NCBI GenBank assembly: GCA_959604355.1
Contig: CAUHAO010000003.1
Location: 210 to 64,209 of the forward strand
DNA: 64,000 bases
From: an uncultured Eubacteriales bacterium
GTDB lineage: Bacteria; Bacillota; Clostridia; Oscillospirales; UBA644
Direction: 5' to 3'
Part shown: in pieces, positions 31,707-50,372 of the stretch
How the letters are laid out: each line of letters opens with the position of its first letter
Numbering within the stretch: position 1 is the first letter of the stretch
Notes under the pieces: generated by a model
Databases searched by the model: none
What the model saw: the letters and a program-made list of their open reading frames with translations, nothing else
Told to the model about the DNA's origin: nothing
Program-made: the position numbers and the translations under genes

Positions 31707-31713
31707 ATCCTTT

Positions 31714-31769
31714 TGGCGGAGAGGAAGGGATTCGAACCCTTGTGGGGTTGCCCCCAAACGGTTTTCAAG
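31714..31769 (-). repeat. attL: 56-nt orphan copy of the tRNA-Ser 3' part (anticodon loop to CCA)
   Basis: Perfect match to 51946-52001. The sequences diverge immediately beyond (G at 31770 versus A at 52002). Confidence 0.9.
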
Positions 31770-31956: not shown

Positions 31957-32333
31957 GCACCCCCGTTTGTGTGGTTCCTGTAGCCGTGTTTGTCGCGGTC
32001 GTTCCCTGTCACAGCACTTCACGGCGCAAATATTTCACCGCTGTAATCAAAGAGTGCCGCTCCGCCAAAGCCGGATTGATAACTTGGATTTATTATAACT
32101 CAAAACAACGGAGATTGCAAATGAAGAATATTTTATCATTCGTCCAATGTGTTTTTAATTATGTCTGACACGCGTCTTCTCGTGTTCACAAAACTCCCAG
32201 TGCAAAATCTTTTCAAAATCCTATTGACAAAATCAGGAAAATATGTTATCATATGATAAAAGGAGTCGAGACTCCATTTATTTTGGGCAAATATAATCAC
32301 AAATTTACCAGGACAAATATTTTAGGAGAGCAT

Positions 32334-32954
32334 ATGACAATTGGTGAAGTTGCGGTTGTCCGAACAGGCCTTGTTACCGCAAGAAAAAAGAAAGATGCAT
32401 CTTCCTTGCGATCATTTGATTATCGGCTTTTGAATCTAAAATGTATCGCAAATGAAGGTTATATTGAAAAAGCTTATATTGAACCATACGAATTATCGGA
32501 AGAGTTGAAAGAGGGCTACCTGACTCGGATGGGAGATATTCTTATCAGACTAAGCGCCCCCTATACAGTAGTCATGATTGATCAACCGGATTTGTGCGGA
32601 ATTGTCATCCCCTCCCACTTCGCAATCATTCGTGTTGATAAACGTTACGCAGTGCCAGAATATGTGTTTTGGTCGTTGCGACGTGACAAGAACAGAATAA
32701 CGATGATGCAAAACAGTAGCGGAAGTACTGCTTTTGGGACAATCAGTTCGGGGCTGATCGCCTCGCTGTCGATCACACTTTTACCCATACAAGAGCAGAA
32801 GATAGTTGGTGATCTGATGATTCTTTCGGAGCGCGAGCAAGAGTTAATGCAAATGCTTGCCACAGAAAAGAAAAAATATAACACCCTGCTTTTGAACCAA
32901 ATCTACGATAATATGAAAAGAGGTAATATAAATGACAACCAAACAAAACATTGA
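32334..32954 (+). CDS. hsdS: Type I restriction-modification specificity subunit, half-size (single TRD)
   Basis: 206 aa with one target-recognition domain plus the conserved helical region LLPIQEQKIVGDLMILSEREQELMQML. ATG 32334 follows aggaga. It overlaps hsdM by 23 nt. Confidence 0.75.
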   Translation: MTIGEVAVVRTGLVTARKKKDASSLRSFDYRLLNLKCIANEGYIEKAYIEPYELSEELKEGYLTRMGDILIRLSAPYTVVMIDQPDLCGIVIPSHFAIIRVDKRYAVPEYVFWSLRRDKNRITMMQNSSGSTAFGTISSGLIASLSITLLPIQEQKIVGDLMILSEREQELMQMLATEKKKYNTLLLNQIYDNMKRGNINDNQTKH

Positions 32955-34488
32955 AAAAGTACTTTGGAACGCATGCGACAGCTTCCGCGGAAAAATTGAC
33001 AGCTCACGATATAAGGATTATATCCTTTCAATGCTTTTTGTGAAATATCTGAGCGATGTATACGCATACACTCGCAAGAAATACAGTGAACAGTATGACG
33101 GAAACGAGGAACGTATTGCCCGTGCGATGAGCCGTGAGCGTTTTGTCATGGACGAAACCTCAACCTTTGATTACCTCTACAAAAACAGAAACGATACGGC
33201 TATCGGTGAAAAAATCAATATCGCTCTTGCGAATATTGAAAAAAACAACAGCGCTAAGTTACATAACGTGTTCCGGGCCATTGATTTCAACTCTACCGTT
33301 GATTTCGGTGAGGTTAAAGAGAAGAATGCAATTCTCAAAAATCTTCTCGAGGATTTCAAGGACCTTGACCTCTCCCCGGATCAGCTCGACAATGCAGACA
33401 TCATCGGAGATGCCTACGAATACATGATTGCTAACTTTGCATCCGATGCGGGAAAGAAGGGCGGCGAGTTCTACACCCCAAGTATGGTTTCTGAGCTGGT
33501 TGCAAGATTGATTGCACCTAAAGAAAATGATCGTATCTACGATGCAACCTGCGGAAGCGGCGGTCTTCTTCTCAAAGCGTACAAGCAGGTAAAGAGCCGG
33601 AAAGTGGCGCTTTACGGGCAGGAGCAGAATATGCAGACATGGGCGCTCTGCCGCATGAATATGTTTTTGCACAATGTAGACGACGCAACTATTTGGCAAG
33701 GCGATACGCTTTCCAACCCCGGAAACATCAAGGACGATAAGTTGATGAAATTCCAGTGTATTTGTGCGAACCCACCATTCTCGCTTGACAAATGGGACAG
33801 CGGATTTCTCTCGGGTGCGGTGGACGAAAAAGGCAAGCCCAAGGAAAAGATGTCTGCGGAACTTGATCCGTTCAGGCGCTTCGATTGGGGCATCCCGCCC
33901 ACATCCAAAGGCGATTACGCATTCGTCATGCATATGCTGCACAGCCTGGACGATGCCACGGGACGCATGGGCATCATTCTCCCTCACGGTGTACTCTTCC
34001 GCGGTGCAGGCGAAGGAAAAATTCGCCGCACCATTATCGAGAGCTTTAACTTTCTTGATGCTGTCATCGGGCTTCCCGCAAACCTGTTCTACGGTGCAGG
34101 TATTCCCGCCTGTATTCTGATTTTCCGCAAGGATCGCGGAACGAATAACAAGGTTCTCTTTGTGGATGCAAGTGGCGAAGGACACTATGAAAAAGGCAAG
34201 AATCAGAACATTCTGCGTGAGTGCGATGTTAAGAAGATCGTTGACACCTATGTTCAGTATAAAACCGATATTCATTATGCGGACGAGCCCAAGTTCAGCC
34301 ATGTGGCTACCCTTGAGGAGATCGCCGAAAACGATTACAATCTTAATATCCCACGCTATGTCGATACTTTTGAGGAAGAAGAATTGATCGACATCGACGA
34401 GGTGAAACAGAATATCGCCAACATCGAGGCAGAGCTTGCCGAGGTGCAGGCGCAGATGAAGAAGTATATGGAGGAGCTTGGGTTATGA
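32932..34488 (+). CDS. hsdM: Type I restriction-modification DNA methyltransferase subunit M (N6-adenine)
   Basis: HsdM N-terminal domain (LWNACDSFRG), AdoMet motif YDATCGSGGLL and catalytic NPPF (CANPPFSLDKW). Confidence 0.95.
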   Translation: MTTKQNIEKVLWNACDSFRGKIDSSRYKDYILSMLFVKYLSDVYAYTRKKYSEQYDGNEERIARAMSRERFVMDETSTFDYLYKNRNDTAIGEKINIALANIEKNNSAKLHNVFRAIDFNSTVDFGEVKEKNAILKNLLEDFKDLDLSPDQLDNADIIGDAYEYMIANFASDAGKKGGEFYTPSMVSELVARLIAPKENDRIYDATCGSGGLLLKAYKQVKSRKVALYGQEQNMQTWALCRMNMFLHNVDDATIWQGDTLSNPGNIKDDKLMKFQCICANPPFSLDKWDSGFLSGAVDEKGKPKEKMSAELDPFRRFDWGIPPTSKGDYAFVMHMLHSLDDATGRMGIILPHGVLFRGAGEGKIRRTIIESFNFLDAVIGLPANLFYGAGIPACILIFRKDRGTNNKVLFVDASGEGHYEKGKNQNILRECDVKKIVDTYVQYKTDIHYADEPKFSHVATLEEIAENDYNLNIPRYVDTFEEEELIDIDEVKQNIANIEAELAEVQAQMKKYMEELGL

Positions 34489-35513
34489 GCGAAGGAAAAG
34501 ATTTGACTATCCGAAACAGTACAGCTGAATTTTTGATTTTTGAAAAGCAGGCTCACGCCGATTCCATAGAAGTTCGTTACGAAGACGAAACATTGTGGCT
34601 TACACAAAAAATGATGTCGGATCTTTTTGATGTTGAATCCAACACGATAACTTATCATTTACAAGAGATTTTTAAGTCTGGGGAATTGGATAAAGAATCA
34701 ACTGCTCGAAAATTTCGAGTAGTTCAAACCGAAGGCACTCGTCAAGTCAGTCGAGAAGTTGACCACTACAATCTTGATGCCGTAATTTCTGTTGGATATC
34801 GTGTAAATTCTATTCGCGCAACCCAGTTCAGACGCTGGGCGACACAGGTTTTGAAGCAGTATGCGATCACCGGTTACATAATTGACCGCAAACGTATGGA
34901 AAACGGCGCGTTCCTCGGTGAAGACTATTTTGAGCGTTTGCTGGAAGAAATCCGCGAGATTCGTTTGAGTGAGCGTAGATTTTATCAGAAGGTTACCGAC
35001 ATATATGCAACCAGTGTGGATTACGATAAAAATGCACCGACAACCAAGCTCTTCTTTGCTACCGTTCAGAACAAGATGCATTATGCCATCACGGGCAATA
35101 CAGCTCCGGAATTGATTATGGGGCGTGCTGACAGCAGCAAAGAACATATGGGTCTTACTTCGTGGGAGCGTTCCCCCGACGGCAAGATTCTCAAATCCGA
35201 CGTTTCGGTCGCCAAAAACTATCTTACCAAGGATGAACTTGATTCGCTTGGCAGAATCGTCAACTCCTTCCTCGATGCCGCAGAAGATTTCGCAAAGCGT
35301 AAGATCCCGATGACGATGGAAGACTGGGCAAAACGGCTTGATATGTTCTTGGCGTTTACCGGACGCGATATATTGACCGATGCGGGTACAGTTTCAAAAA
35401 TCGCAGCTAAAGCTTACGCCGAAAGCGAATTTGAAAAATACCGTGTGACACAAGACAAGCTCTATCAGAGTGATTTTGACAAGCTGGTGGAGAAGACGAA
35501 AAAGGAGAAGTAA
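34485..35513 (+). CDS. rhuM: RhuM family virulence/Fic-DOC-associated protein (common insert in type I R-M operons)
   Basis: The sequence IEVRYEDETLWLTQKMMSDLFDVESNTITYHLQEIF...VISVGYRVNSIRATQFRRWATQVLKQY is characteristic of RhuM. ATGA overlap with hsdM. Confidence 0.8.
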   Translation: MSEGKDLTIRNSTAEFLIFEKQAHADSIEVRYEDETLWLTQKMMSDLFDVESNTITYHLQEIFKSGELDKESTARKFRVVQTEGTRQVSREVDHYNLDAVISVGYRVNSIRATQFRRWATQVLKQYAITGYIIDRKRMENGAFLGEDYFERLLEEIREIRLSERRFYQKVTDIYATSVDYDKNAPTTKLFFATVQNKMHYAITGNTAPELIMGRADSSKEHMGLTSWERSPDGKILKSDVSVAKNYLTKDELDSLGRIVNSFLDAAEDFAKRKIPMTMEDWAKRLDMFLAFTGRDILTDAGTVSKIAAKAYAESEFEKYRVTQDKLYQSDFDKLVEKTKKEK

Positions 35514-35514
35514 A

Positions 35515-36105
35515 ATGAACGAAGTTATTTTAGTTATTGTTACAGCATTGATTTCTGGCTTACTTGCTACATTAGTAACAATTTGGTGGCAAAAACGCTC
35601 TGCCATACATAAAAGCAAAATGAAAATATTTGAAACACTAATGGCTTATAGATATCGAATTATTGCAGAGCCAAGTGTACATGCGTTGAACTCTATAGAT
35701 GTTGTTTTCTATAAAGATGATAATGTTAGGCGTGCTTATACTGATTTTTTGAACGAAGCTGCGAAAAGGCCAGAAATGAATCCCAATACCGGTGACAAGC
35801 ATTTGAAACTTCTTGAAGAAATGGCAAAAGCTTTGAACTTAAAGAACATCCATTGGGACGATATTAAGCAAGCTTATTGTCCTAACGGACTTCTGGAAAA
35901 AATCCAAGAAGAAGAGATGTTGAGAAAAATGCAACTGCAAACTACCGCAAACGCTATCGAAGCACAAAAGAATCAGCAGAATACTCCTACTCAAGATCAA
36001 ATTAACCAACAACTAATGTTACAGCTTCTTCCTGAACTAATTAGAAATCCTGACGGATTTAAGAATCTTATGGAGTTAGGAGAGAGGTTTGGTACTAAAA
36101 AATGA
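35515..36105 (+). CDS. Hypothetical N-terminally membrane-anchored protein
   Basis: 196 aa. ATG 35515 follows aaggaga. It has one TM helix (VILVIVTALISGLLATLVTIWW) and then a helical soluble domain. ATGA overlap with the downstream hsdS. Confidence 0.5.
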   Translation: MNEVILVIVTALISGLLATLVTIWWQKRSAIHKSKMKIFETLMAYRYRIIAEPSVHALNSIDVVFYKDDNVRRAYTDFLNEAAKRPEMNPNTGDKHLKLLEEMAKALNLKNIHWDDIKQAYCPNGLLEKIQEEEMLRKMQLQTTANAIEAQKNQQNTPTQDQINQQLMLQLLPELIRNPDGFKNLMELGERFGTKK

Positions 36106-37406
36106 CCCTTCAAGTTAAACAACGAATTGAACAAATCCGGCGGGGCGAGGTGCCGGAGGGATATATCATAATAAAAGATGGAGTGTATCCTTCCGATTGG
36201 ACAATCAAGACAATGAAGCAGTGGATTACACTTGAAGAACGTCCGGTCACATTACAAGATGATGAAGAATATGAATTGGTGACAGTTCGCCGTGCATATG
36301 GAGGAGTAGATTCAAGAGGCATCTACAAGGGAAAAGAAGTGTTAGTCAAAACATACTTCTCAGTAAAAAAGAACGACTTTATTATTTCCAAAAGACAGAT
36401 CGCACATGGAGCATGTGGTCTTGTTCCTGATAGATTGAATGGAGCGGTTGTTTCTAATGAGTATAATGTATTCAAGGCAAAAGAAGGGACAAACATCCAA
36501 TTTTTTAACCTTATGATGCAACTCCCTCATTATAAAAGGCTTTTTTATCTTATGAGTGATGGGGTACATATTGAAAAACTCTTATTCAAAACAAGCGATT
36601 GGATGAAACGAAGTTTGGCCATACCCCCTCTCGCCGAGCAAGAGAAGATTGCCGAGATTTTGCAGACGCAGGACAAGCTGATTGAGCTTCAACAGAAGAA
36701 AATTGAAGAGCTGAAACGGCTCAAAAAAGTGTATCTGTCGAAAATGTTCCCGAAAAAAGGCTGCAATGTCCCCGAAATCCGTTTCCCGGGTTTCACTGAC
36801 CCTTGGGAACAGCGCAAGTTGGGGGAAGTTGTTAGTCAGATAACAACAGGACTTAATCCTCGTGATAATTTCAAACTTAACTCAGGTGGTAATAACTATT
36901 ATGTTACTATTAAAAACTTTGAACACGGAGTCCTGCATTTAGATGACAAATGCGACTTTGTTGATGATGAGGCACTGACTCTAATTCAAGCTCGTAGCGA
37001 CCTAAAAAAAGATGATATTTTATTTACAAGCATAGGGCGTGTGGGAGATTGCTATTTGATTGAAAATACGCCGAAAAATTGGAATATCAATGAGTCAGTA
37101 TTCTCATTACGACCAAATAAAAATATTGTAGAACCTGTATACCTTTTCCATACCATTCACAGTGATATCGTGCTAAATCAAATCCTAAATAATATTACGG
37201 GAAGCACATTTAAAAGTATAAAAATTGGTGACTTAAAAAATGTGATTATTCCTATCCCACCAAAGCAAGAACAAGAGCAAATTGCTAAGCTAATTACTGC
37301 TTTGGAGAGCCTTATCACCCTTCATCAGCGTAAGTTGGATGAAGAACAAAAAAAGAAGAAAGCCCTGATGCAGATTCTGCTGACGGGAATTGTGAGAGTA
37401 AAATAA
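36102..37406 (+). CDS. hsdS: Type I restriction-modification specificity subunit, full length (two TRDs)
   Basis: Two TRDs are separated by the conserved helices PPLAEQEKIAEILQTQDKLIELQQKKIEELKRLKKVYLSKMF and PPKQEQEQIAKLITALESLITLHQRKLDEEQKKKKALMQILLTG. Confidence 0.9.
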   Translation: MTLQVKQRIEQIRRGEVPEGYIIIKDGVYPSDWTIKTMKQWITLEERPVTLQDDEEYELVTVRRAYGGVDSRGIYKGKEVLVKTYFSVKKNDFIISKRQIAHGACGLVPDRLNGAVVSNEYNVFKAKEGTNIQFFNLMMQLPHYKRLFYLMSDGVHIEKLLFKTSDWMKRSLAIPPLAEQEKIAEILQTQDKLIELQQKKIEELKRLKKVYLSKMFPKKGCNVPEIRFPGFTDPWEQRKLGEVVSQITTGLNPRDNFKLNSGGNNYYVTIKNFEHGVLHLDDKCDFVDDEALTLIQARSDLKKDDILFTSIGRVGDCYLIENTPKNWNINESVFSLRPNKNIVEPVYLFHTIHSDIVLNQILNNITGSTFKSIKIGDLKNVIIPIPPKQEQEQIAKLITALESLITLHQRKLDEEQKKKKALMQILLTGIVRVK

Positions 37407-37415
37407 GGAGAAAAA

Positions 37416-38822
37416 ATGAAACTAAGCCACGAATACAAAGCCATCGATTCCAAAGACTGTTTTGACCCCATACTCGTTGCAGATACGGAACTTTTTGTAG
37501 ATCCGTTTTCCGTTTTTGATGAAAGCGACGGCGTATTTGCTAATTCTTTTGACAAAATAATTTCTTTCTTCAATGCTGCATTCAAATTAGCAGCTCAAAC
37601 TCCGGAGCGACATGGTGTGTTATATCGAAAACTCGAATCTATGATGACCTTTCCGGAGGTTAACGAAATTGGTTTGGGATATTCTGGGTCAAACGATGGT
37701 GCAGGCGCATCCACGTGGTTTAGAGATCAAATTATTGAATCTCTATATAAATCCATCGAACGAGGAATGGATTGCTATCGTCATTTCGAGGAAATTGCCA
37801 TTTTTGAAAAAGGAATTGGTTGCGACAGAATAAGCGATATAACCTGTAACATCCTCAAAGAAGAAATTATCTCCTACACTCAGTCAATCTGTGCTCAACT
37901 GGATATTCCCATGATCCCCGTACGAATGAGGCATATTCGTTTTGATTTCAAACATTTGCGTTGGGTAGATGGTGTAGTAGAACTTCCCTATAATAAACAC
38001 AAAAAGAGAGGCATTTTGCTTATACCTGAACGTTTTCTTAATGACCTTCCAACAATTAACCCCGATGATTTCAAAGATTATATTTGGGATTGCAAAAACG
38101 AAACATTAAGAAACGATTTGAATTATAGCATAAAATCAGACATTGACAAAGACGCAATTATGGATATTGCTCGGAGATGTCCGGATTGGGTTAAAGAATA
38201 TGAAGAATACAAGGAATCCCAAGGATTTCAACCCTATGATTTGAAGAAGGATAAGAAAGGGGTATATGCTTGGGCAGGAAAAGAACTAATTGAACATGTG
38301 CAGTCGCACCCTTTTTCCTTCTCGGACGCGGAGACGTTCTCTGAATGTGTGTTTAATATTTGCAAATCGTTTCAGAATTATATAGAAACGGAAAAAGGAT
38401 ATACCCTTCTTTGGAATGATGATAATGACAAACCCAAAGCGGAAGCTGCACTCCAAACACTTTTCTTTGGCTTCATAAAAGCGTATGGGGTGTTTCTTAA
38501 CATTGATATCACTCGTGAAAGCAATGCTGGAAGCGGACCTGTAGATTTCAAGTGTTCCCAAGGTTATCATAAGCGCGTTCTAATAGAAACCAAGCTTGTT
38601 AGCAATTCACGATATTGGAATGGTTTGGAACGGCAATTGCCAAAATATATGCTGGCAGAAGAAATCGACAAAGGCATTTTCATGCTTGTTGCTTTTTCAG
38701 TAGATGAATATAACAAGGGCAACAAATACATATCACAAGTTGGCAACCTAAATTTGCCTTATGCTATTGATACGATGCTAATAGATGCATCTAAAGACAA
38801 GCCAAGTGCATCAAAGTTATAA
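37416..38822 (+). CDS. Hypothetical 468-aa protein with C-terminal PD-(D/E)xK nuclease-like motif
   Basis: Strong RBS aaggaga. The C-terminal segment KAEAALQTLFF...ESNAGSGPVDFKCSQGYHKRVLIETKLVSN fits helix-E / P-x-D / E-x-K. The N-terminal ~330 aa is unrecognised. Confidence 0.6.
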   Translation: MKLSHEYKAIDSKDCFDPILVADTELFVDPFSVFDESDGVFANSFDKIISFFNAAFKLAAQTPERHGVLYRKLESMMTFPEVNEIGLGYSGSNDGAGASTWFRDQIIESLYKSIERGMDCYRHFEEIAIFEKGIGCDRISDITCNILKEEIISYTQSICAQLDIPMIPVRMRHIRFDFKHLRWVDGVVELPYNKHKKRGILLIPERFLNDLPTINPDDFKDYIWDCKNETLRNDLNYSIKSDIDKDAIMDIARRCPDWVKEYEEYKESQGFQPYDLKKDKKGVYAWAGKELIEHVQSHPFSFSDAETFSECVFNICKSFQNYIETEKGYTLLWNDDNDKPKAEAALQTLFFGFIKAYGVFLNIDITRESNAGSGPVDFKCSQGYHKRVLIETKLVSNSRYWNGLERQLPKYMLAEEIDKGIFMLVAFSVDEYNKGNKYISQVGNLNLPYAIDTMLIDASKDKPSASKL

Positions 38823-38838
38823 ATGGAGGTGAAATATT

Positions 38839-39012
38839 ATGGCAACCAATCCCCCGAAGGGAGACGGTCACAGAAACGGCGCTGTAAAAGAGCGTTCACA
38901 GACCTACAATCCCAAGACGCAGACATGGACAAAGCGTGACACAAATACCGGCAGGTTCATGGATGGCAAGAAAGACGGGACACCGTTCAAAGGTGTCCGC
39001 AAGGAAAAATAA
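38839..39012 (+). CDS. Small basic hypothetical protein (57 aa; below the ORF-track cutoff)
   Basis: Hand-translated as MATNPPKGDGHRNGAVKERSQTYNPKTQTWTKRDTNTGRFMDGKKDGTPFKGVRKEK. Excellent RBS ggaggtg 7 nt upstream. A hairpin follows at 39017-39053. Confidence 0.5.
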   Translation: MATNPPKGDGHRNGAVKERSQTYNPKTQTWTKRDTNTGRFMDGKKDGTPFKGVRKEK

Positions 39013-39073
39013 ATCCGCAGACAGCGAGGCGTTTTTCGTCTCGCTATGTCTGCTTTAGATAGGAGGTGTCAAT

Positions 39074-40213
39074 ATGTCAAAAATGACAGTAAAAGAGCAA
39101 GAAGCATATTTGAAAAAGCTAATAGAATATGGCGATAAAATCAAATCTGATAAAAGCCTTGTAGACAGTATTTTAAAAGAACATTTATGTAATGTTCCTC
39201 ACAAGAAGCTGTATAAATTCCGCACTTGCTCAAATCAGAACTTCAAAACATTAGAAGAAAATTGCATATGGATGCCTCCGGCTAATACTTTCAAGGACAC
39301 ATTCGATTGTATAATCAATATCGACTTCAAAAAGAATATGCCGCAAATCGGAACATGGTTGTACGATAATCTTTTGGACTTTTATTTTGTATTTGTCAAA
39401 GACTTTTTTGAAAGTCGTGGGATTCCTTTCCCGTATAATCCTGACGATCTACGGAACTATACTAAAGAATGTGTTAGTCCTTCAGGCAAAATCAAATCGA
39501 CGTCAGAATATGAATTTTTAAAAAAATATGCGCCTGATATAGATTCGGAAGAATATGACAAACAGATTTCCGATATGAGAAAAAAACGCTCACAAGTTGA
39601 ACCACTATTAACTGACCGGGTTAAATCCTTGGTGCCGAAGCTTGTAGATGAAATTCAAAAAGCGCAATCGCATTTGCGTGACACAATGTTGGTGTATTGT
39701 ATGACAGAGCGCTTTGACAATCACAATCTTTGGGAAACATATGCAAACAACTATAGCGGTTTTTGCATTGAATACTGCTTTGATAATTTTGAAGAAAAAG
39801 ATTTTGATATTTATAAAAATCTGATATATCTTCTTCCGATGATCTACAAGAAAAACATCCCTCATTTTGATGTGGTTCCTTTTATCGACATTGCTATGAG
39901 AAAGAGCATACTTCACGAAGACGGGTTAGAGCAAAATCCGGATTTGCTTGTGGCTCTCAATATGCAAGTGTTTTATAAAGACAAAGATTACGAGTCAGAA
40001 CACGAGTGGAGATTTTCGATTGCAAACAAGAATAATTGCAAACAACCATTTCCGTTCGTAAGCGGAATATATGCAGGGAAAGATATCAAAACAAGAAATC
40101 TGCAACGATTAAAAAACATCGCTGGAAAACTTGGCGTTCCGATATACTGTCAAGTACAAAACAAGTCCAACAACGGATATAATTATATTCCGGTCCAGGA
40201 GGTAACTAAATGA
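39074..40213 (+). CDS. DUF2971-like protein
   Basis: LYKFRTCSNQNFKTLEENCIWMPPANTFKDTFD, LWETYANNYSGFCIEY and EHEWRF match the DUF2971 pattern as I remember it. RBS aggagg. ATGA overlap with hsdR. Confidence 0.6.
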   Translation: MSKMTVKEQEAYLKKLIEYGDKIKSDKSLVDSILKEHLCNVPHKKLYKFRTCSNQNFKTLEENCIWMPPANTFKDTFDCIINIDFKKNMPQIGTWLYDNLLDFYFVFVKDFFESRGIPFPYNPDDLRNYTKECVSPSGKIKSTSEYEFLKKYAPDIDSEEYDKQISDMRKKRSQVEPLLTDRVKSLVPKLVDEIQKAQSHLRDTMLVYCMTERFDNHNLWETYANNYSGFCIEYCFDNFEEKDFDIYKNLIYLLPMIYKKNIPHFDVVPFIDIAMRKSILHEDGLEQNPDLLVALNMQVFYKDKDYESEHEWRFSIANKNNCKQPFPFVSGIYAGKDIKTRNLQRLKNIAGKLGVPIYCQVQNKSNNGYNYIPVQEVTK

Positions 40214-43200
40214 GCTACAAATATCAATCAGATTTATATCTTGAAGATAACATCAGCAAATACCCTGCCATAGAGCTTTTATGCAAACTGGGCTATCAAT
40301 ATATTTCTCCCGAGGAGTGTATCAATCAGCGCGGCGGGTTTTATGATGTTATACTGAAAGACATTCTGCGAGCACAGCTTCATAAGTTGAACCAATTTTA
40401 TTACAGCGGCATTACATATAAATTTACAGCAGAAAACGTAGAACGCGCCATTTCTGAGTTGGACGAGCCGCTTACCGACGGTCTTGTGCGTACCAGTGAA
40501 AAGATCTATGATGCTCTGATGCTTGGCAAGAGCTATCCTGAAAAGCTTGTGGACGGAACGACCAAGAGTTTTAACCTGAAATATATTGATTGGGAGCATC
40601 CCGAAAATAATGTATTTCATGTCACCGAGGAATTCTCATGTGACAGTTGGGACAAACAGAAAAATGCTCGTCCGGACATTGTTTTGTTTGTCAACGGTAT
40701 TCCGTTTGCGGTAATCGAGTGCAAAGCACCTACTGTTGACGTGGATCAAGCTGTCGAGCAGATGATTCGTAATCAAGGTAAGCCGTATATTCCTCAGCTC
40801 TTCAAATTTGCCCAAGTTGTGGTTGCGACCAACAAAAATGCCGTCAAGTACGCAACCTGCGGCACAGGAAAGAACTTTTGGTGCATATGGCATGAGCAAT
40901 CTACAGAGTGGCAGAACAAACTGCTTGATCAGTATGTTGTGGGGCGTGAAATAACCGAGCAGGACAGAAATATTGTTTCTCTGCTCGATCCGGATCGTTT
41001 ATTGACTCTCACGAAATACTTTATCCTTTACGATGCCAATATCAAAAAGATCTGCCGTTATCAGCAGTTCTTTGCCGTTGAAGAAATCATCAAGACCATT
41101 CAACAGAACGATCCTGCGGGCAACCGTCAAGGCGGTGTTATCTGGCATACACAAGGGAGCGGCAAGTCCCTGACGATGGTTATGGTGGCAAAGTATATTC
41201 TTATGGAAATGAGCCGCTTTAATCCTCGTGTTGTCATTGTGACAGACCGAAAAGAGCTTGATAAACAGATCGCCAAGACCTTTGCTCATACAAGACTGTC
41301 TCCCGCAAGAGCCACCTCTGGAAAGCATTTGATTGAGCTTGTCAACAGCGGGTCGGTGGATGTGATTACATCGATCATCAACAAGTTCAATACGGTGGAG
41401 AGCAGCGGACTCAAAAACAATTCCAGGGATATCTTCGTTCTGGTTGACGAAAGCCACCGCTCCAATTACGGTTCCTTGTCAACCAAAATGCGCACTGTAT
41501 TTCCAAATGCGTGCTACATCGGATTTACAGGAACACCTTTAATGAAGAGCGAAAAGAACACCATGGAGAAGTTCGGCAGGTTAATCCACAAGTACACAAT
41601 CAAAGACGGTGTGGAAGATCATGCCATTGTCCCTTTGATCTACGAAGGAAAATTTGTGGAACAGAGTGTGGATGAAGCCAATATAGACCTTTGGTTCGAT
41701 CAGGTTACAAAAAGGCTGAATGATGCACAGAAGGTCGACCTTAAAAACAAGTGGAGTACCATCAAACGTCTGACTTCCACAGATGCACGGATCAAGCGCA
41801 TTGCGCTGGATGTGAATCTGCACTTTATTGAAGGCTACAAGAACACCGGATTCAAAGCAATGCTGGCGTGCAATTTCAAAAAGGATGCGGTTCGCTATCA
41901 AAAATGCTTTGAAGAGTTCGGAGATCTTACCACTGCGGTAGTTATTTCTGCTCCCGATATGCGTGAAGGTAGTGAAGAAGTAGACGAAAGCACTGACGAT
42001 ATGGTTGTCGCTTTCTGGAACAAAATGATGGCGCAATACGGCAATGCGGATGATTACGAGGATGCGATCAAAAATAAATTTATTGACGGTGAAATTGACA
42101 TTTTGATTGTGTGTAGTAAACTCCTTACCGGATTTGATGCACCTCGCACACAAGTACTTTATATCGATAAAGAGCTCAAAGAGCACGGATTACTTCAGGC
42201 AATTGCGCGCACAAACCGCCTTTATGAGGGTAAAGATTACGGTTTGATTGTAGACTATCGAGGACTGATTCAAAAGCTTGATTCTGCTATGGAAATCTAT
42301 AGTGGGGCGGGACTTGAAGAATTTGACAGCACCGATATTCAAGGTGTGATTGTCGATGTAATGGTATGCGTGAGCCGTTTGCGGGAAGCATATTCTCATC
42401 TGTGTGATATTTTTACCTCAATCAGGAACAAAGAGGATACGGAGGAAATCGAAGTTTTTCTTGCAGATACCGAAATCCGTGCGAAGTTCTATGATGCACT
42501 TTGTTCTTTCGGACGTGCTCTCAACATGGTGCTGAATTCCGAAAAGGCATATTCTGCATTTACAAAGCAGGAAATCGGCATGTATCAATCAGCATTTATC
42601 TTCTATTCAAAAGTGAGAAGAAGTGTAAAAAAACGTTATGCAGATGTGATCGATAATAAAGAGTATGAGAAGCAGATGCAAAATCTTCTTGATACGCATA
42701 TGTCAGTCGCAGGTATTAAACAAATCACAAATCCGGTTGATATTCTTGACCGTGATGAACTTGAAAAAGAACTGCATGACCTGGGAACCATGCGTTCAAA
42801 AGCAGATGCGATTGTATCTCACATGACTAAGAGCATTAAAGCAAACAGAGATGAAAATCCGGCGTATTACGATAGCTTTTCCAAAAGAATAAAGGATGCT
42901 TTGGAGGAATATAAGAATCGGGTCATCACGGAAGCTGAATATCTTTCCAAGTTAAGATCCATTATGGAAGACTACCGTAAGGGTACTACCAACATTTCCT
43001 ATCCGGAAAAAATCAAGGGAAATGTTCATGCACAGGCATTCTACGGTGTGATTACTGCGATTTTAGATGATGTAATGGATATAAGCGCCAATATTGATGT
43101 TATTTCGGATATCTCAATTCGCGTCACAGATATTATTGATGAACACAATATGGTTGATTGGCAGACAAACAAAGATATTCACAACAAGATTGCTCAAGAC

Positions 43201-43314
43201 ATTGACGATATGTTCTATGACATCGAAAAAGAAAAAGGTATTCATGTTGACTTCGATTCTGTTGATAAGATCATTGAGAATGTGATCACAGTTGCCCTTA
43301 GGAGATTCAAATGA
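40210..43314 (+). CDS. hsdR: Type I restriction endonuclease subunit R
   Basis: N-terminal PD-(D/E)xK (RPDIVLFVNGIPFAVIECK). SF2 motifs are present: HTQGSGKSLTMV, VLVDESHRS, FTGTP and QAIARTNR. Length is 1034 aa. Confidence 0.95.
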   Translation: MSYKYQSDLYLEDNISKYPAIELLCKLGYQYISPEECINQRGGFYDVILKDILRAQLHKLNQFYYSGITYKFTAENVERAISELDEPLTDGLVRTSEKIYDALMLGKSYPEKLVDGTTKSFNLKYIDWEHPENNVFHVTEEFSCDSWDKQKNARPDIVLFVNGIPFAVIECKAPTVDVDQAVEQMIRNQGKPYIPQLFKFAQVVVATNKNAVKYATCGTGKNFWCIWHEQSTEWQNKLLDQYVVGREITEQDRNIVSLLDPDRLLTLTKYFILYDANIKKICRYQQFFAVEEIIKTIQQNDPAGNRQGGVIWHTQGSGKSLTMVMVAKYILMEMSRFNPRVVIVTDRKELDKQIAKTFAHTRLSPARATSGKHLIELVNSGSVDVITSIINKFNTVESSGLKNNSRDIFVLVDESHRSNYGSLSTKMRTVFPNACYIGFTGTPLMKSEKNTMEKFGRLIHKYTIKDGVEDHAIVPLIYEGKFVEQSVDEANIDLWFDQVTKRLNDAQKVDLKNKWSTIKRLTSTDARIKRIALDVNLHFIEGYKNTGFKAMLACNFKKDAVRYQKCFEEFGDLTTAVVISAPDMREGSEEVDESTDDMVVAFWNKMMAQYGNADDYEDAIKNKFIDGEIDILIVCSKLLTGFDAPRTQVLYIDKELKEHGLLQAIARTNRLYEGKDYGLIVDYRGLIQKLDSAMEIYSGAGLEEFDSTDIQGVIVDVMVCVSRLREAYSHLCDIFTSIRNKEDTEEIEVFLADTEIRAKFYDALCSFGRALNMVLNSEKAYSAFTKQEIGMYQSAFIFYSKVRRSVKKRYADVIDNKEYEKQMQNLLDTHMSVAGIKQITNPVDILDRDELEKELHDLGTMRSKADAIVSHMTKSIKANRDENPAYYDSFSKRIKDALEEYKNRVITEAEYLSKLRSIMEDYRKGTTNISYPEKIKGNVHAQAFYGVITAILDDVMDISANIDVISDISIRVTDIIDEHNMVDWQTNKDIHNKIAQDIDDMFYDIEKEKGIHVDFDSVDKIIENVITVALRRFK

Positions 43315-44030
43315 TCAAAGAAATAGTTTTGAACGGGAAACGAATTGAGTATGAGTTGCAAAGAAAAAACGTTAAGAATATCAATTTAAGAATTAAATCA
43401 GATAGAACGGTTTTTGTTTCTGCCAATCCTCGTGTTTCCGAAAAGGTAATCGAAGAGTTTATTGAATCCAAGTCGGAGTACATTCTCAAGGCTCTTGCAC
43501 ATTATGAAGAACTTGCCAAATATGCTCCTAAACCGAAACAATTTGTGGATGGAGAAACATTCAGAATACTTGGTCATGATAGAAGATTGAAGGTTGTTGA
43601 GGCAAAGAAAAACAAAGTGGAATGTGATGAATCGTACATTACATTGACCGTTAAAAACCCGGACGATTACGAACTGAAAAAGAAATTGATTGATAAATGG
43701 TTAATGTCGATCTGCAAGGATACAATTCAATCTTTGTGCGATGCTATTTACCCCAAATTTCAGAAATACGGAGTTGAATATCCGATTATTCGGTATAGGA
43801 ATATGGTTTCTCGTTGGGGAAGTTGCCAGCCAAAACGTTGTGTTTTGACTTTCAATTTTGCTTTGGTTGAAGCACCGATATCGTGCATCGAATATGTTGT
43901 AGTGCATGAGTTTACCCACTTCTTGCAACCGAATCATTCAAAGAAGTTCTATCAGCAGCTTGCTATGTTTATGCCCGACTGGGAGGAGAGAAAGAAGATC
44001 CTTGAAAAAGGAAATGCTTTTGTTGAATGA
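43311..44030 (+). CDS. M48/DUF45 (YgjP-like) zinc metallopeptidase
   Basis: HEFTH zinc motif (VVHEFTHFLQPNHSKKFY). ATGA overlap with hsdR, which is the usual R-M-associated position. Confidence 0.8.
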   Translation: MIKEIVLNGKRIEYELQRKNVKNINLRIKSDRTVFVSANPRVSEKVIEEFIESKSEYILKALAHYEELAKYAPKPKQFVDGETFRILGHDRRLKVVEAKKNKVECDESYITLTVKNPDDYELKKKLIDKWLMSICKDTIQSLCDAIYPKFQKYGVEYPIIRYRNMVSRWGSCQPKRCVLTFNFALVEAPISCIEYVVVHEFTHFLQPNHSKKFYQQLAMFMPDWEERKKILEKGNAFVE

Positions 44031-44419: not shown

Positions 44420-44800
44420 ATGACAAAACAATCTTTCCTTTCCTACTGCCTCGATACATACGGCACAGCGCCGGACTATCCGTTTGAAGAAGATTTTGAA
44501 ACGGCGGTGCTCCGGCACGCGGATAATCGCAAGTGGTATGCTCTCGTGATGCGGGTATCCCGTCGCAAGTTCGGATTTGACAGCGACGAGGTCATTGACG
44601 TTGTCAACCTCAAGCTCCCGACCGAGATGTTTGGTTCCTTCGGTGCAGCTGACGGTGTCTACCCGGCGTACCACATGAACAAGCTCCATTGGATTTCGGT
44701 GCTTCTTCCCGACGCGCCCGAGGATGTGGTGCAGTTCCTTGTGAACGTGAGCTTTGAGGCGACGAAGGACAAGCGGAAACGCAGAAAGATTGCAGAATAA
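44420..44800 (+). CDS. MmcQ/YjbR family DNA-binding protein
   Basis: YPFEEDFETAVLRHADNRKWYALVM...VVNLK...YHMNKLHWISVLL is typical of the YjbR/MmcQ family. Confidence 0.75.
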   Translation: MTKQSFLSYCLDTYGTAPDYPFEEDFETAVLRHADNRKWYALVMRVSRRKFGFDSDEVIDVVNLKLPTEMFGSFGAADGVYPAYHMNKLHWISVLLPDAPEDVVQFLVNVSFEATKDKRKRRKIAE

Positions 44801-44991
44801 TGCAAAAGGGTGGTTCTCACGAGCCATCCTTTTTCTTCTGCCGATAAGTCCATCCGCTTTATTGCCGCAACGGTTAGAATAGATCAACTGAAGTAACGAG
44901 ATAAACAACGATTATAGGGTGGGGTTTTTTCCCCCACCCTACTCCGACAAAAAGTAGGATGGGACAGTTCAAAACGCCCGGACCTCTTTTT

Positions 44992-45016
44992 ATGCGCCGA
45001 AAGGCGCATTTTTTGT
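44992..45016 (+). terminator. Rho-independent terminator ending the R-M/cargo transcription unit
   Basis: ATGCGCC-gaaa-GGCGCAT followed by TTTTTTG. Confidence 0.65.
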
Positions 45017-45030
45017 TTTACGGCCGATTT

Positions 45031-45620
45031 TGTAAATAAAAAGTAAACAATGCGGGGAGAGGGGTACATTTTGCCCATTTTTTGTCCTATTAGGTGAGGG
45101 GCAATTTTAAGTCAAGGGGCAAGACCTCATTTTGAGGTCTTGATAGTTATCCACTGAATTCCGGACAGACCCATGGCGCAAATTCCGTTAGAAGGTCAAT
45201 TTCTGTAAATAAATTGTAAATATCGCGCCAAAGACCATCAAAATGGGTGCCTAAACCCCTGTATTTTTTCATATAGGTGAGGAATGTTTTTCAAAAGGGG
45301 GTGCGGTTTTCTTTTTCCTGTGACTATTAAGAGAGAGGACAATTGATGAGATAGGGCTTTTGTAAACAAACGGTAAACATTGTTTGCATCAGGGGGTACA
45401 GAACGTCATTTTTATGGGTATAGGTAGAGGATGTTTTTTCAACGGCACTGATTTGTAAATATGCTGTGAATCTTTTTCAAAACCGCCCCCACAAAACGCC
45501 GTTATTATGGATATAGGTGAGGAATGATTTTCAAAAAGGGGGGGATGCGGTTTTCAAATTCCTGTGGCTATTAGGTGAGAGAACTATTTGCAAAACCGTT
45601 CTTCTGTAAACAAGCAGAGC
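45031..45620 (+). repeat. Iteron field upstream of the AAA-ATPase gene
   Basis: There are five copies of TGTAAAyAnnnnGTrAAyA, at 45031, 45204, 45361, 45454 and 45605. There are four copies of TA(T)TAGGTGAGG-type boxes, at 45087, 45271, 45416 and 45511. Two of these extend to ~75-bp near-identical repeats at 45271-45345 and 45511-45590. Confidence 0.7.
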
Positions 45621-45691
45621 TACATATCGGGAAACGAGGTCACGGGCTCCTTTCCCCAATCAAATATTTTTTCAACGAAAGGAGATTACGA

Positions 45692-46783
45692 ATGCAAAGT
45701 AATCCACACAAGCTCACCGTAATAGACGGTGAAACACTCATGGACAAAAGACTTCCGCCCACGAAGTTTTGCGTCGACACTCTACTGCCCCAAGGGCTCT
45801 GCATCCTTGGCGGTTCACCCAAGGTAGGCAAATCGTGGCTGGTGCTTGACCTATGCGTCCACGTCGCCCAAGGAACGCCTTTGTGGGGGCTTGACGTGAC
45901 GAGGGGAGATGTGCTCTACCTCTGCCTTGAAGACAGCGAGAGGCGGATTCAGGAGCGCCTGAACACCATCACGGATAACGTTCCCGAAGGAATGTATTTC
46001 GCAACCGGATGCACCTCAATTGAGAGCGGAGTCTGCGATTGGCTCCGTCGGTTCAAAGGGCAACACCCGGCACTCTCTCTGGTCGCCATCGACACCTTCC
46101 AGCTCATCCGCACGCCCACTCCCGAGGTTTCCTACGGCGGTGACTACGCCGAACTTCGCGTCCTCAAAGAGCTGGCAGATGAGCTTGGCATCTGCCTTCT
46201 GCTCGTCCACCATCTGCGGAAGATGAACGATAAGGATCCCGTCAACAAGCTCTCGGGTAGCACAGGTATCTCGGGCGCGGTCGATGCCATTTTCGTTCTG
46301 GACAAGAACGAGAGGATAGAACGCCTCGCTACGTTCTACGCCTCGGGGCGTGATATCCGTGACCGAAAGATCCAGCTGGAGCATGACACGGACACCTGCG
46401 TCTGGACACTCATTGCAGACAGCCTGACCATGCCTGAAACATTGCTTCCCGATGAAATGGCATATATGCTCGGTTTCCTTGTGAGATCAACAACTCATGA
46501 ATTCGTCGGTACGAACACCGAACTGGCTCAGCACGTTTCCATCGCGTTAGGGAAAGAGGTCAACCCCAAGGGACTCAAGCAAATGATGAACCGCTACCGT
46601 TATCGGCTGGAAGACCTCGGTGTCTTCTTTGAGAGCAAGCGGAGCAACGGACAGAAGTACGTTGTGGTCAAATACCGTCCTCCCTCTGACGGTGACTCAA
46701 GTGCCTCAAGTGACTCTGTTTCTTCTGCTCTCACAGATTCCGTCCCTTTCGTCCCTTGCGTTCCTGCGGAGGATTTGGGATGA
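45692..46783 (+). CDS. AAA family ATPase (RepA/AAA_25-like, replication or transfer helper)
   Basis: ATG 45692 follows aaggaga; the track ORF starts at GTG 45575 inside the repeats. Walker A is GGSPKVGKSW, with Walker B-like LVAIDTFQ and LLLVHHLRK. Confidence 0.75.
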   Translation: MQSNPHKLTVIDGETLMDKRLPPTKFCVDTLLPQGLCILGGSPKVGKSWLVLDLCVHVAQGTPLWGLDVTRGDVLYLCLEDSERRIQERLNTITDNVPEGMYFATGCTSIESGVCDWLRRFKGQHPALSLVAIDTFQLIRTPTPEVSYGGDYAELRVLKELADELGICLLLVHHLRKMNDKDPVNKLSGSTGISGAVDAIFVLDKNERIERLATFYASGRDIRDRKIQLEHDTDTCVWTLIADSLTMPETLLPDEMAYMLGFLVRSTTHEFVGTNTELAQHVSIALGKEVNPKGLKQMMNRYRYRLEDLGVFFESKRSNGQKYVVVKYRPPSDGDSSASSDSVSSALTDSVPFVPCVPAEDLG

Positions 46784-46803
46784 AGACGCTTTATGACGAG
46801 TTT

Positions 46804-46981
46804 CGCCTTTGTATTACGACCGCCCATTTGGGCGGCCGCAAAGGCGTCGGGCTAAGCCCATACCCCTACGCCGTAGGCGTAACTTCTTTCGCTTTCGAAA
46901 GAAATATCACGACGGTGTTCTCACCGTCATATCACGTTGCCGCAGGGCAACATATCACATCTCGCTCGCGAGATATATCAC
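46804..46981 (+). promoter_or_regulatory. Candidate oriT: array of hairpins punctuated by four ATATCAC heptamers
   Basis: A nested hairpin CGCCTTTG..CCGCCC-attt-GGGCGG..CAAAGGCG comes first. It is followed by palindromes GGGCTaAGCCC, CCTACGcCGTAGG and CTTTCGAAAG. After these, ATATCAC (46904) is followed by the hairpin GACGGTG/CACCGTC, ATATCAC (46929) by GTTGCC/GGCAAC, ATATCAC (46952) by ATCTCGC/GCGAGAT, and a final ATATCAC lies at 46975. The array sits immediately upstream of mobC-relaxase. Confidence 0.5.
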
Positions 46982-47003
46982 TCTTATCAGAAAGGACTTT
47001 AGA

Positions 47004-47321
47004 ATGAATAAACAAAACAAAGATTATTTCATTTCTTTTCGCGTGACTGCTGAAGAAAAGAAGTGGATCGAAGAACATTCCTACGGCAATTACCGCCTCA
47101 TCAGCGACTTCGTTCGGGACTGTGTTTTCAAAAAAGAAATGATCATCATCACAGGTGCGGGCGATGTGGCAACCGAACTTCGCCGTATCGGAAATAACGT
47201 AAACCAGCTCACGCGAGCCGTCAACGCGGGATTTGTTTCGCAGATCAATCTGACAGAGACGAGAAAGGAGCTTGAAAATATATGGCAATCGTTAAATTCG
47301 TTGCTTCGAGTTGCCCGATGA
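47004..47321 (+). CDS. mobC: Plasmid mobilization relaxosome protein MobC
   Basis: DYFISFRVTAEEKKWIEEH...ELRRIGNNVNQLTRAVN is the MobC ribbon-helix-helix + conserved GNNLNQ-type motif. ATG 47004; the track ORF is over-extended to 46809. Confidence 0.7.
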   Translation: MNKQNKDYFISFRVTAEEKKWIEEHSYGNYRLISDFVRDCVFKKEMIIITGAGDVATELRRIGNNVNQLTRAVNAGFVSQINLTETRKELENIWQSLNSLLRVAR

Positions 47322-48259
47322 ACAATATTTTTCCCTACGTGATGAACCGGGAAAAGACCGATGAAAATCTGATTTCGGGCATCAACTGCTCCCCCGATAC
47401 GGTGCTTCAGGAATTCACGTTTGTGAAAAAGCAATTCAAAAAAGAGGACGGAAGGACATACGTTCACATCGTACAAGCCTTCAGTCCCGACGATGATCTA
47501 ACCCCCGAGGTTGCTCACGAGATCGGTCTGCGCTTTGCTGAATACTTCCCCGGCTATCAGATCCTGATCGCCACACACAGAGATCACGCCCACCTCCACA
47601 ACCATCTCATACTCAACTCGGTGAACATGGAAACGGGAAAGAAATTTCATCAGAGTGCCGCCGAGATGCGGCAGGTCAAGGAGTATTCCAACAGGCTCTG
47701 CCGGGAGTACGGACTGTCCGAAACCGAAATGAAATCTGCCTTTGGGGCAATGCCGAAGTGGAAGGATCTGCTTCGCCGAAAGGCATATTCCGTCGCCAAC
47801 AACACCTGCTGCAAGGAAGATTTTATCTACGAAATGGAGATGCACGGCTACAAGGTTGACTGGAAAGATAACCATAAGTATATCACCTTCACCACGCCCG
47901 ACGGTCATAAATGCCGTGACAATAAGCTCTTTGCCGAGCAGCTTCTGCGAAAAAATCTGGAGATTTATTTCGCTCTCGGCGGTTGTGAATCGGGACTTGC
48001 GGATCAATACAAGTCGTATGTGAATGATCTCCGACCCGAACACGCCTACACAGTTGGCGACGGACTTTTCAATCTTTTGAAAAATCTGCTCGAAACCATG
48101 CCCTACGATGGACTCTTCACACCGCCTGTTGAAGAACATCAGCTCGACAAAATGACCGTGATGATGCTGGAAATGATGGGCATCAAGGTCGAACCCAAGG
48201 CGCTTTTACAGTACAGCGCAAACAACGAACGTGAAAACGAATACGGACTTTATATGTAA
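47282..48259 (+). CDS. Relaxase/mobilization nuclease (MobA/VirD2 family)
   Basis: The N-terminus MAIVKFVASS...YV, then YVHIVQAFSP and the histidine triad HRDHAHLHNHLILNSV. Confidence 0.85.
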   Translation: MAIVKFVASSCPMNNIFPYVMNREKTDENLISGINCSPDTVLQEFTFVKKQFKKEDGRTYVHIVQAFSPDDDLTPEVAHEIGLRFAEYFPGYQILIATHRDHAHLHNHLILNSVNMETGKKFHQSAAEMRQVKEYSNRLCREYGLSETEMKSAFGAMPKWKDLLRRKAYSVANNTCCKEDFIYEMEMHGYKVDWKDNHKYITFTTPDGHKCRDNKLFAEQLLRKNLEIYFALGGCESGLADQYKSYVNDLRPEHAYTVGDGLFNLLKNLLETMPYDGLFTPPVEEHQLDKMTVMMLEMMGIKVEPKALLQYSANNERENEYGLYM

Positions 48260-48273
48260 CGAAAGGAAAAGGA

Positions 48274-48576
48274 ATGCTCAATCACAATATCTTTTGTAAT
48301 TACCCCGACGCCATGACACTCGCCCAGTTTGCAGAGTGCTTAAATATCAGCACCAAGCTCGCCTCACGACTCGTGCATGAGAAAAAGGTCTTCGCCAAAA
48401 AAGTAGGACGGGAATACCGTATCTCGAAAAGCTCTGTGGTGGAATTTGTCCGCGGAGAGAAAAAACACAAGAAAAAAAGTTGTGTTGTAAATGTAACTTC
48501 GAACCCACAGGACTGGATAATTGAAGATAAATGTGGTATCTTGTGTGCTGCCGCAAAGCGAAAGGAGGTATGCTGA
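48274..48576 (+). CDS. Excisionase-family helix-turn-helix DNA-binding protein
   Basis: MTLAQFAECLNISTKLASRLVHEKKVFAKKVGREYRISKSSVVEFV is a MerR-like/excisionase wHTH. It lies directly upstream of the integrase. Confidence 0.65.
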   Translation: MLNHNIFCNYPDAMTLAQFAECLNISTKLASRLVHEKKVFAKKVGREYRISKSSVVEFVRGEKKHKKKSCVVNVTSNPQDWIIEDKCGILCAAAKRKEVC

Positions 48577-48577
48577 T

Positions 48578-49789: not shown

Positions 49790-49790
49790 T

Positions 49791-50372
49791 ATGCTGGGGG
49801 AGGGCGAAATATCCTTGGAACAGCTCTACAAGATGCTTCACGTCAGCAAGAGAAAGGCGGCGTGGATGCTGAACAATGGCATCATTCCGTGCCGCATCCG
49901 TCCGACCGCAACCCACCGATATATCATCCGCCTGGAGGACGTAGAAATTTACCTGCAGAAACAAAGAAAGGCAAGGCGAGAGGAGATCCCCGTGGGAATC
50001 TTCAACGCCAAGCCCCGGAAGCGGGAGGTGTTGCTGAACCGTCAGCCCGTGGACACTGTCACCATCGCAGAATGCTATATCACCCTTGCGGATGAATACA
50101 AGGAAGCGTTCCGAGCGCATGTGGAGAAGCGGCTCCAATACACAGCAGACGCCTTCGTCATTGATACCGCGGCAGAGATCATCGGTTACAGTCGTGGCAT
50201 GGTGCTGTCCCACATTCAGCAAAAGCACATTGACGCCGTCCGCATCAGCGGCAAGTATATCATCTCCAAAGCCGCCATCGTTGACTTCCTCGTCAGTGAC
50301 ATTGCCTTCGGAATTGTCAATAAATCCGCGTGGCATATGAATACGATCCTGATGTTCTCAAATAAGGGATAA
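49791..50372 (+). CDS. Tandem excisionase-like HTH domain protein
   Basis: Two wHTH-like repeats: LEQLYKMLHVSKRKAAWMLNNGIIPC...YIIRLEDVEIYL and IDTAAEIIGYSRGMVLSHIQQKHIDAVRISGKYIISKAAIVDFL. Confidence 0.55.
   Translation: MLGEGEISLEQLYKMLHVSKRKAAWMLNNGIIPCRIRPTATHRYIIRLEDVEIYLQKQRKARREEIPVGIFNAKPRKREVLLNRQPVDTVTIAECYITLADEYKEAFRAHVEKRLQYTADAFVIDTAAEIIGYSRGMVLSHIQQKHIDAVRISGKYIISKAAIVDFLVSDIAFGIVNKSAWHMNTILMFSNKG

Follow-up and report, generated by a model that had tools for sequence, protein, structure and literature searches.

Two variations on the type I restriction-modification (R-M) locus have been described. One is the presence of a short specificity (S) gene in addition to a full-length one. 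In the hsdRSMS operon of Staphylococcus xylosus, the 191-amino-acid (aa) hsdS_short, located immediately 5' of hsdM, shows conservation over its full length; proper methylation of the expected non-palindromic motif required hsdS_short, and expression of hsdS_short by itself was toxic (PMC10030836). The BlihIA system of Bacillus licheniformis contains a full S and a half S, and its Oxford Nanopore (ONT) methylome revealed one recognition site, RTAC(N)5GCT (PMC12429846). The other variation is the nesting of co-directional extra genes between hsd genes. The PDC families derive from genes found nested within type I R-M, BREX and DISARM loci, an approach termed 'guilt-by-embedding' (Payne et al., bioRxiv 10.1101/2024.01.29.577857). 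PrrC in EcoprrI and TgvAB are examples of such genes, and TgvAB on VPI-2 of Vibrio cholerae serves as a worked example of embedded defense genes. Both an extra short S and embedded genes are present in the operon described here, which occupies positions 32334-44030 of a 64,000-nucleotide stretch (the window) of contig CAUHAO010000003.1 from an uncultured Eubacteriales bacterium. The layout and the extra short S are both already published, and the locus illustrates them richly without constituting a new type of system.

We read the locus as a short-plus-long S type I operon with two slots for exchangeable cargo, carried on a mobilizable element, and we consider this reading probable. It builds on direct observations, namely the gene content and couplings, the borders of the element, a conserved backbone with variable cargo, and conservation of the short S. 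The operon would be a compact natural 'defense cassette holder' on a mobilizable element and a convenient source of candidates for study, namely DUF6680, DUF8370/8371, PDC-S38 and RhuM.

Operon organization and conserved backbone

Open reading frame (ORF) calling, with families assigned from Pfam, PADLOC and NCBIfam, identified ten ORFs in 32334-44030, all co-directional on the + strand. Their order and direction agree with those listed in an earlier note on this DNA; the eleven genes of that note's title are ten by sequence and by its own gene list. The features of the operon are the following.

32224..32252, + strand: promoter-like site, TTGACA-17-TATCAT, TG-extended, 11/12 matches, directly 5' of the short hsdS ribosome-binding site
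32334..32954, + strand: short hsdS, 206 aa (PADLOC Specificity_I, E 3e-11)
32932..34488, + strand: hsdM, type I N6-methyladenine (m6A) methyltransferase (HsdM_N and N6_Mtase, gamma-class; TIGR00497, 277 bits)
34485..35513, + strand: RhuM-family protein (PDC-S05) in slot 1 (Pfam E 5e-111; PADLOC E 6e-156)
35515..36105, + strand: DUF6680 protein with an N-terminal hydrophobic/transmembrane (TM) helix, in slot 1, abutting long hsdS (Pfam E 3e-28)
36102..37406, + strand: long hsdS, specificity subunit with two variable recognition domains (Methylase_S twice)
37416..38822, + strand: 468-aa DUF8370 and DUF8371 protein in slot 2 (PDC-M36A on the N-terminal half; PF28123/PF28130)
38839..39012, + strand: 57-aa basic protein (PDC-S38, phrog_12550) in slot 2 (PADLOC full-length, E 5e-35)
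39017..39053, + strand: stable hairpin 3' of the 57-aa gene (-26.7 kcal/mol, z -4.8)
39074..40213, + strand: DUF2971 protein (PDC-S31), 379 aa, in slot 2, abutting hsdR (Pfam 36.7 bits; PADLOC E 2e-29)
40210..43314, + strand: hsdR, restriction and translocase subunit (HSDR_N, SWI2_SNF2, T1R_D3-like, T1RH-like_C; TIGR00348, 500 bits)
43311..44030, + strand: YgjP-like (DUF45) metal hydrolase (Pfam E 2e-57; HExxH present as an intact HEFTH)

The type I R-M core is complete by domains, consisting of HsdM, a two-domain HsdS and an HsdR that combines an N-terminal nuclease with an SF2 motor. The junctions between the genes are as tight as the earlier note had reported. Overlaps of 4 nt occur at hsdM/rhuM, DUF6680/long hsdS, DUF2971/hsdR and hsdR/YgjP, short hsdS overlaps hsdM by 23 nt, and the remaining junctions are gaps of 1, 9, 16, and 61 nt. 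The promoter-like site is near-consensus and precedes the first gene of the operon. Short hsdS was assigned the ATG at 32334, which follows an AGGAGAG ribosome-binding site; an alternative longer start at 32253 directly follows the -10 box. The terminator-like sites on the + strand within the operon are all weak (stems of three GC pairs). The first stronger one occurs only at 44992-45009, so a YjbR-family gene downstream of the operon may share its transcript. A single promoter 5' of short hsdS would drive all ten genes.

A scan with HsdM recovered 80 loci whose hsdM was 72-98% identical to that of the window, and the window proteins were mapped onto them. The hosts were Clostridia, Bacteroidota, Fibrobacter, Spirochaetes, Desulfovibrionaceae and Holosporaceae metagenome-assembled genomes (MAGs) and cultured Ruminococcus, Oscillibacter, Faecalibacterium and Lachnotalea. 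The common backbone comprised, in order, short hsdS, hsdM, a first slot (slot 1), long hsdS, a second slot (slot 2), hsdR and the YgjP hydrolase gene. An intact short S of about 190-206 aa was present in all loci that extended far enough (76/76). In 58 of 59 loci, the YgjP gene began at a distance of -10 to +20 nt from the stop of hsdR. The DUF45 peptidase, which the earlier note had counted among the passengers, thus forms a fixed pair with hsdR in this lineage.

The closest relative (L004, hsdM 98% identical) contains short hsdS, hsdM and YgjP at 10001-13871 with no hsdS or hsdR match between them, and looks like a decayed copy that lost its restriction subunit. A layout of short S, hsdM, RhuM, hsdS, cargo and hsdR was also found on an Arcobacter (Campylobacterota) plasmid (CP146529.1; L103), the cargo of which consists of SLATT, DUF87 and RNA-binding-domain proteins.

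Short and long specificity subunits

The short S consists of one recognition-domain-like part and one helix. Its family profile matched TRD2 and CR2 of the M. jannaschii S subunit (PDB 1yf2) with an E of 5.5e-17, covering the whole recognition domain and the helix, and gave a weaker alignment with Esub1, a half-S homodimer. Column identity in the recognition-domain part of the short S was 0.33-0.60 (77 sequences), while in the long S (62 sequences) it was 0.14-0.29 in the recognition domains and 0.44-0.85 in the helices. The short S evolves about 10 times faster than HsdM and is under purifying selection, with a nonsynonymous divergence (dN) of 0.14-0.19, a saturated synonymous divergence (dS) and a dN/dS of at most 0.12; the dN/dS values of backbone genes are upper bounds only, as synonymous sites were saturated even at 97-98% protein identity. 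The two S proteins of the window were 30% identical over just 89 aa, and no DNA repeats common to both hsdS genes were detected. A phase-variable hsdS shufflon was considered and rejected on these two grounds and on the shared direction of the two hsdS genes. At 32934-32954, the window's short hsdS lacks the stop codon that is kept after '...KRGN' in 20 of 76 relatives. By comparison with these relatives, it is a local peculiarity that the window's gene has seven additional residues and overlaps hsdM by 23 nt.

The conservation pattern of the operon suggests that it belongs with the 'short S plus long S' type I variant. It shares with hsdRSMS and BlihIA an intact single-domain S-like gene of roughly 190-200 aa directly upstream of hsdM, a short S that is conserved over its whole length in contrast to the variable recognition domains of the long S, and carriage on a mobile element. 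The gene order here (S-short, M, ..., S-long, ..., R, YgjP) differs from the R, S, M, S of hsdRSMS, and the cargo slots and the fixed YgjP partner set the window lineage apart from both systems. Plasmid pC2014-2 of S. equorum contains a true hsdRSMS operon, the HsdM of which has 518 aa, like that of the window, and is 40% identical to it. The short S aligned with staphylococcal HsdS_short at 24% identity over 101 aa by BLASTP and at 17% identity by hhalign (probability 91.5%), and staphylococcal HsdS_short was no closer to it than ordinary S subunits are. The staphylococcal systems were not recovered when plasmids were searched by tblastn with the short S. One hit (H15) was an hsdMS pair of the ordinary kind from S. 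aureus.

The earlier note had proposed that two S subunits could give the operon two specificities. The short S would then dimerize and form, with the same HsdM and HsdR, a second enzyme that acts on a palindromic bipartite site. Engineered half-S proteins of EcoR124I and EcoDXXI yielded palindromic sites (PMC3874165), which makes such an enzyme possible in principle, and Esub1 is a half-S homodimer. The short S, moreover, has a full recognition domain and helix homologous to 1yf2 and is maintained by purifying selection. We nevertheless regard a second specificity as quite improbable. The conservation of the recognition part of the short S, set against the hypervariable long S, is unlike that of an arms-race specificity determinant, and the gene is intact in every locus in which it could be assessed. 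The two short-plus-long S systems that have been studied, S. xylosus hsdRSMS and BlihIA, each gave only one non-palindromic motif, and removal of the short S in S. xylosus degraded that motif without the loss of a second. Under the reading that we prefer, a short-plus-long S operon, one bipartite m6A site would be set by the long HsdS alone. The short S would be a non-diversifying accessory that, by analogy with S. xylosus, may aid the assembly of HsdM with the long HsdS or faithful methylation. The lineage also provides a second, phylogenetically broad setting for studying the poorly understood short S subunit.

Cargo slots and embedded genes

Slot statistics were obtained from the 60 loci having all landmarks. 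Slot 1 was occupied in 58 of these and slot 2 in about 48, and of the 172 slot ORFs with 100 aa or more, 170 ran in the same direction as the hsd genes. Together, 210 slot ORFs formed 91 clusters. Representatives matched PDC-S13 (DinD-like), PDC-S34, PDC-S45, AbiN, PDC-M48A/B, PD-T7-4 and PDC-M49A, and others were PtuA/AriA-like ATPases, OLD, and a CBASS cyclase with a SAVED-HNH effector. Because the same positions carry varied defense-type genes across the 60 loci, the two slots are defense-gene hotspots. Each of the five genes embedded in the window's operon was absent from many otherwise intact backbones, and most of this cargo was missing from loci with an hsdM 94-97% identical to that of the window. 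In its place, near-identical backbones had CBASS, AbiN-like, OLD-like and other PADLOC candidate genes. Their absence from near-identical operons marks the embedded genes as facultative cargo that does not belong to the R-M mechanism. The slots would be places for exchangeable, co-directional and mostly single-gene defense modules.

In three loci (L041, L045, and L015), slot 1 contained a complete CBASS, with a CD-NTase and the SAVED-HNH effector between hsdM and hsdS. The DinD-like PDC-S13 representative, from slot 1 of L060, matched positions 3-269 of the 717-position PADLOC Specificity_I model (E 4e-107).

The earlier note had suggested a PADLOC search of the island, and four of the five embedded genes proved to match known embedded-defense candidate families: RhuM (PDC-S05), the N-terminal half of the 468-aa protein (PDC-M36A), the 57-aa protein (PDC-S38) and the DUF2971 protein (PDC-S31). 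The models of PDC-S05, PDC-S38 and PDC-S31 were matched over most of their length by genes in the embedded position. The exception was the DUF6680 protein, which had no match in PADLOC 2.0.0. In these respects the operon resembles the loci from which guilt-by-embedding was developed, with co-directional extra genes nested between hsd genes. It differs from them in having five embedded genes and two slots in one operon, in the slot-specificity of the cargo in this lineage, and in two components for which the candidate families do not account: DUF6680, and a C-terminus of the 468-aa protein beyond the PDC-M36A model. The proposal that the embedded genes are defense candidates rather than random insertions is supported by the PADLOC families, from the Aristaios system discussed below and from the other defense genes in the same slots; it is tempered by the facultative nature of these genes, which near-identical operons lack.

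The two slot-1 genes had constant positions. All 15 RhuM members in the related loci were in slot 1, directly 3' of hsdM, and RhuM was proposed long ago as a toxin-like R-M partner (PMC3710099). All seven DUF6680 members were likewise in slot 1, mostly directly 5' of hsdS, and had a strongly conserved N-terminal TM helix and 60 invariant residues. A relationship of DUF6680 to the AbiN-like membrane proteins of slot 2 was considered and rejected (hhalign probability 0.4%).

At least 464 proteins, annotated as DUF8370 and DUF8371, make up the family of the 468-aa protein. Its residues 18-269 matched model positions 26-264 of 457 in PDC-M36A, and no partner-model match was found among the neighboring genes. 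Residues E368, P375-V-D377 and E391-x-K393 were invariant in 35 sequences. The AlphaFold2 (AF2) model (pLDDT 84.9) has a C-terminal alpha-beta-beta-beta-alpha-beta order, and Foldseek gave local nuclease-domain matches to SfsA, NucS and XPF with probabilities of 0.47-0.84. The C-terminus is predicted to be a PD-(D/E)xK nuclease because of these structural matches and the invariant E368, D377, E391 and K393. Foldseek detected no fold match for the N-terminal ~340 aa, although this part has many invariant residues, and a sequence search of the PDB with the family profile gave nothing meaningful. The gene recurs directly after hsdS in related backbones (95% and 72% identical), and it also occurs alone beside AbiH/Abi_2 genes or in another defense island.

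The 57-aa protein is a member of a family of 832 representative clusters, almost all of them small proteins. Its gene was under strong constraint (dN/dS 0.04-0.08), was the sole slot-2 gene in L073, and an identical protein was found with changing upstream neighbors. A sequence search of the PDB with the 57-aa protein gave spurious kelch-repeat matches only. The hairpin that follows the gene was also found 3' of it in three related loci (L092, L007, and L013), both arms of the stem having changed, and might mark the border of a cassette or act as an attenuator before hsdR. Between the window and L005, L007 and L016, the dS of the 57-aa gene was 0.4-0.8, and hsdM and hsdR of the same pairs were saturated. 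These values suggest a more recent exchange of the 57-aa cassette than of the backbone.

The DUF2971 protein exceeded the Pfam cut-off of 22 bits with a score of 36.7, and all six members of its family were in slot 2. Aristaios, a validated single-gene DUF2971 anti-phage system of lactococcal plasmids, protects alone in Lactococcus (PMC11381338), and DUF2971/Aristaios is predicted to be a DarT-like ADP-ribosyltransferase (PMC12522546). Residues R50 and E309-x-E311-W-R were invariant in the DUF2971 family. As far as sequence goes, R50 and E309xE311 would fit the published prediction, from which the claim of an ADP-ribosyltransferase fold is taken. The window protein has in common with Aristaios the DUF2971 domain and a conserved R...ExE-type motif. 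Unlike Aristaios, it has 379 aa with long helical inserts, is embedded, and overlaps hsdR in a manner indicative of translational coupling.

The constancy of these positions favors a different view of the cargo, in which some embedded genes are accessory or regulatory parts of the R-M lineage. RhuM or DinD-like proteins would then work with the M/S complex, and the 57-aa gene with its hairpin, or DUF2971, would tune HsdR. RhuM always directly follows hsdM, DUF6680 usually abuts hsdS and DUF2971 abuts hsdR. The DinD-like family aligns with the first 269 positions of the PADLOC HsdS model, so that fusions to S exist, and the 57-aa gene, alone in slot 2 of L073, is too small for an enzyme and has its hairpin upstream of hsdR. 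We consider this view unlikely, as all five genes are missing from many intact backbones, locations outside R-M loci or changing neighbors are seen for the 468-aa gene and the identical 57-aa gene, and a DUF2971 gene is protective by itself in Lactococcus. The embedded genes could also be selfish passengers, such as addiction modules or functions that benefit the element, which use the operon, being well expressed and hard to lose, as a safe harbor and have no anti-phage role. Four of the five lack an experimentally established function, the locus rides on a mobilizable element, and cassettes appear to be independently mobile, the 57-aa gene having a lower dS than the backbone and its own hairpin. 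Yet the same slots hold validated defense systems such as CBASS, in addition to AbiN-, OLD- and PD-T7-4-like genes, and the cargo families are statistically defense-associated (bioRxiv 10.1101/2024.01.29.577857), which makes selfish passengers the least probable of the explanations considered. We favor cargo genes that would act independently, adding further layers, probably of the abortive-infection or nuclease type, against phages that evade restriction.

Several observations weigh against this combination of an S. xylosus-like short S and independent cargo. Among clusters with at least three members, 22 of 24 were confined to one slot (shuffle p <= 1e-4, a value that overstates independence because the loci share descent). 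Fusions of the DinD-like passenger to HsdS exist, given that its family matches the N-terminal part of the Specificity_I model. Slot-specificity and these fusions together hint that certain cargo genes may act together with the R-M complex rather than by themselves. Experimental anti-phage support among the five cargo families is limited to DUF2971, and a Foldseek search of the PDB with the AF2 model of the window's DUF2971 protein (pLDDT 84.8) returned no ADP-ribosyltransferase and nothing below an E of 0.5. The short S could also behave differently from the staphylococcal one, since the link between them is architectural and their sequence similarity distant (17%; hsdM 40%). A more far-reaching proposal, which we regard as unlikely, is that the lineage, defined by its conserved short S and fixed YgjP hydrolase, is a type I R-M chassis specialized as a two-slot defense carrier, over at least six phyla of gut and rumen bacteria, and that its position-specific cargo does more than hitch-hike. 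Slot-1 cargo (RhuM, DinD-like, DUF6680) would act via HsdM/HsdS and slot-2 cargo (57-aa gene with hairpin, DUF2971) via HsdR, with the R-M system as a shared sensor or platform. Were slot position to reflect coupling to R-M in this way, the view of how embedded defense genes work would change.

Mobile element and host genome

The operon lies between two copies of a perfect 57-nt direct repeat, which duplicates the 3' half of tRNA-Ser(tga) and bounds 20.2 kb. The features outside the operon are the following.

31713..31769, no strand assigned: attL, left copy of the 57-nt direct repeat, 100% identical to 51945-52001
44420..50372, + strand: maintenance/mobility module with YjbR, repeats, an AAA_25 protein, MobC, relaxase, HTH_17, tyrosine integrase and HTH_17
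51945..52034, - strand: attR, the repeat at 51945-52001, inside an intact tRNA-Ser(tga) gene at 51946-52034 (repeat and tRNA annotation)

The region 31713-52001 is a 20.2-kb integrative mobilizable element in the 3' half of tRNA-Ser. The operon is cargo of this element because the flanking repeats are at tRNA-Ser and the integrase, MobC and relaxase lie between them. Conjugative transfer (type IV secretion) families had no match among the scanned ORFs of 44420-51872, and an Rfam scan gave nothing apart from the tRNA. The tyrosine integrase, MobC and relaxase, replication-type AAA_25 protein and 57-nt tRNA repeat are like those of other tRNA-borne integrative mobilizable elements with defense cargo. 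Unlike in those elements, one R-M/defense operon here fills more than half of 20 kb. The mobile element may carry the whole package between gut bacteria.

The host genome (1.79 Mb, 98.8% complete) contains a single hsdM and a single Pfam-level hsdS, the long one. Among 60 relatives of this host, only one had a homologue of the 468-aa gene. At the element's right end, 50512-51872 on the - strand contains two overlapping ORFs (251 and 202 aa) without a Pfam or PADLOC match. The YjbR-family gene follows YgjP at 44420-44800, and the same arrangement was found in three of the related loci (L006, L009, and L084).

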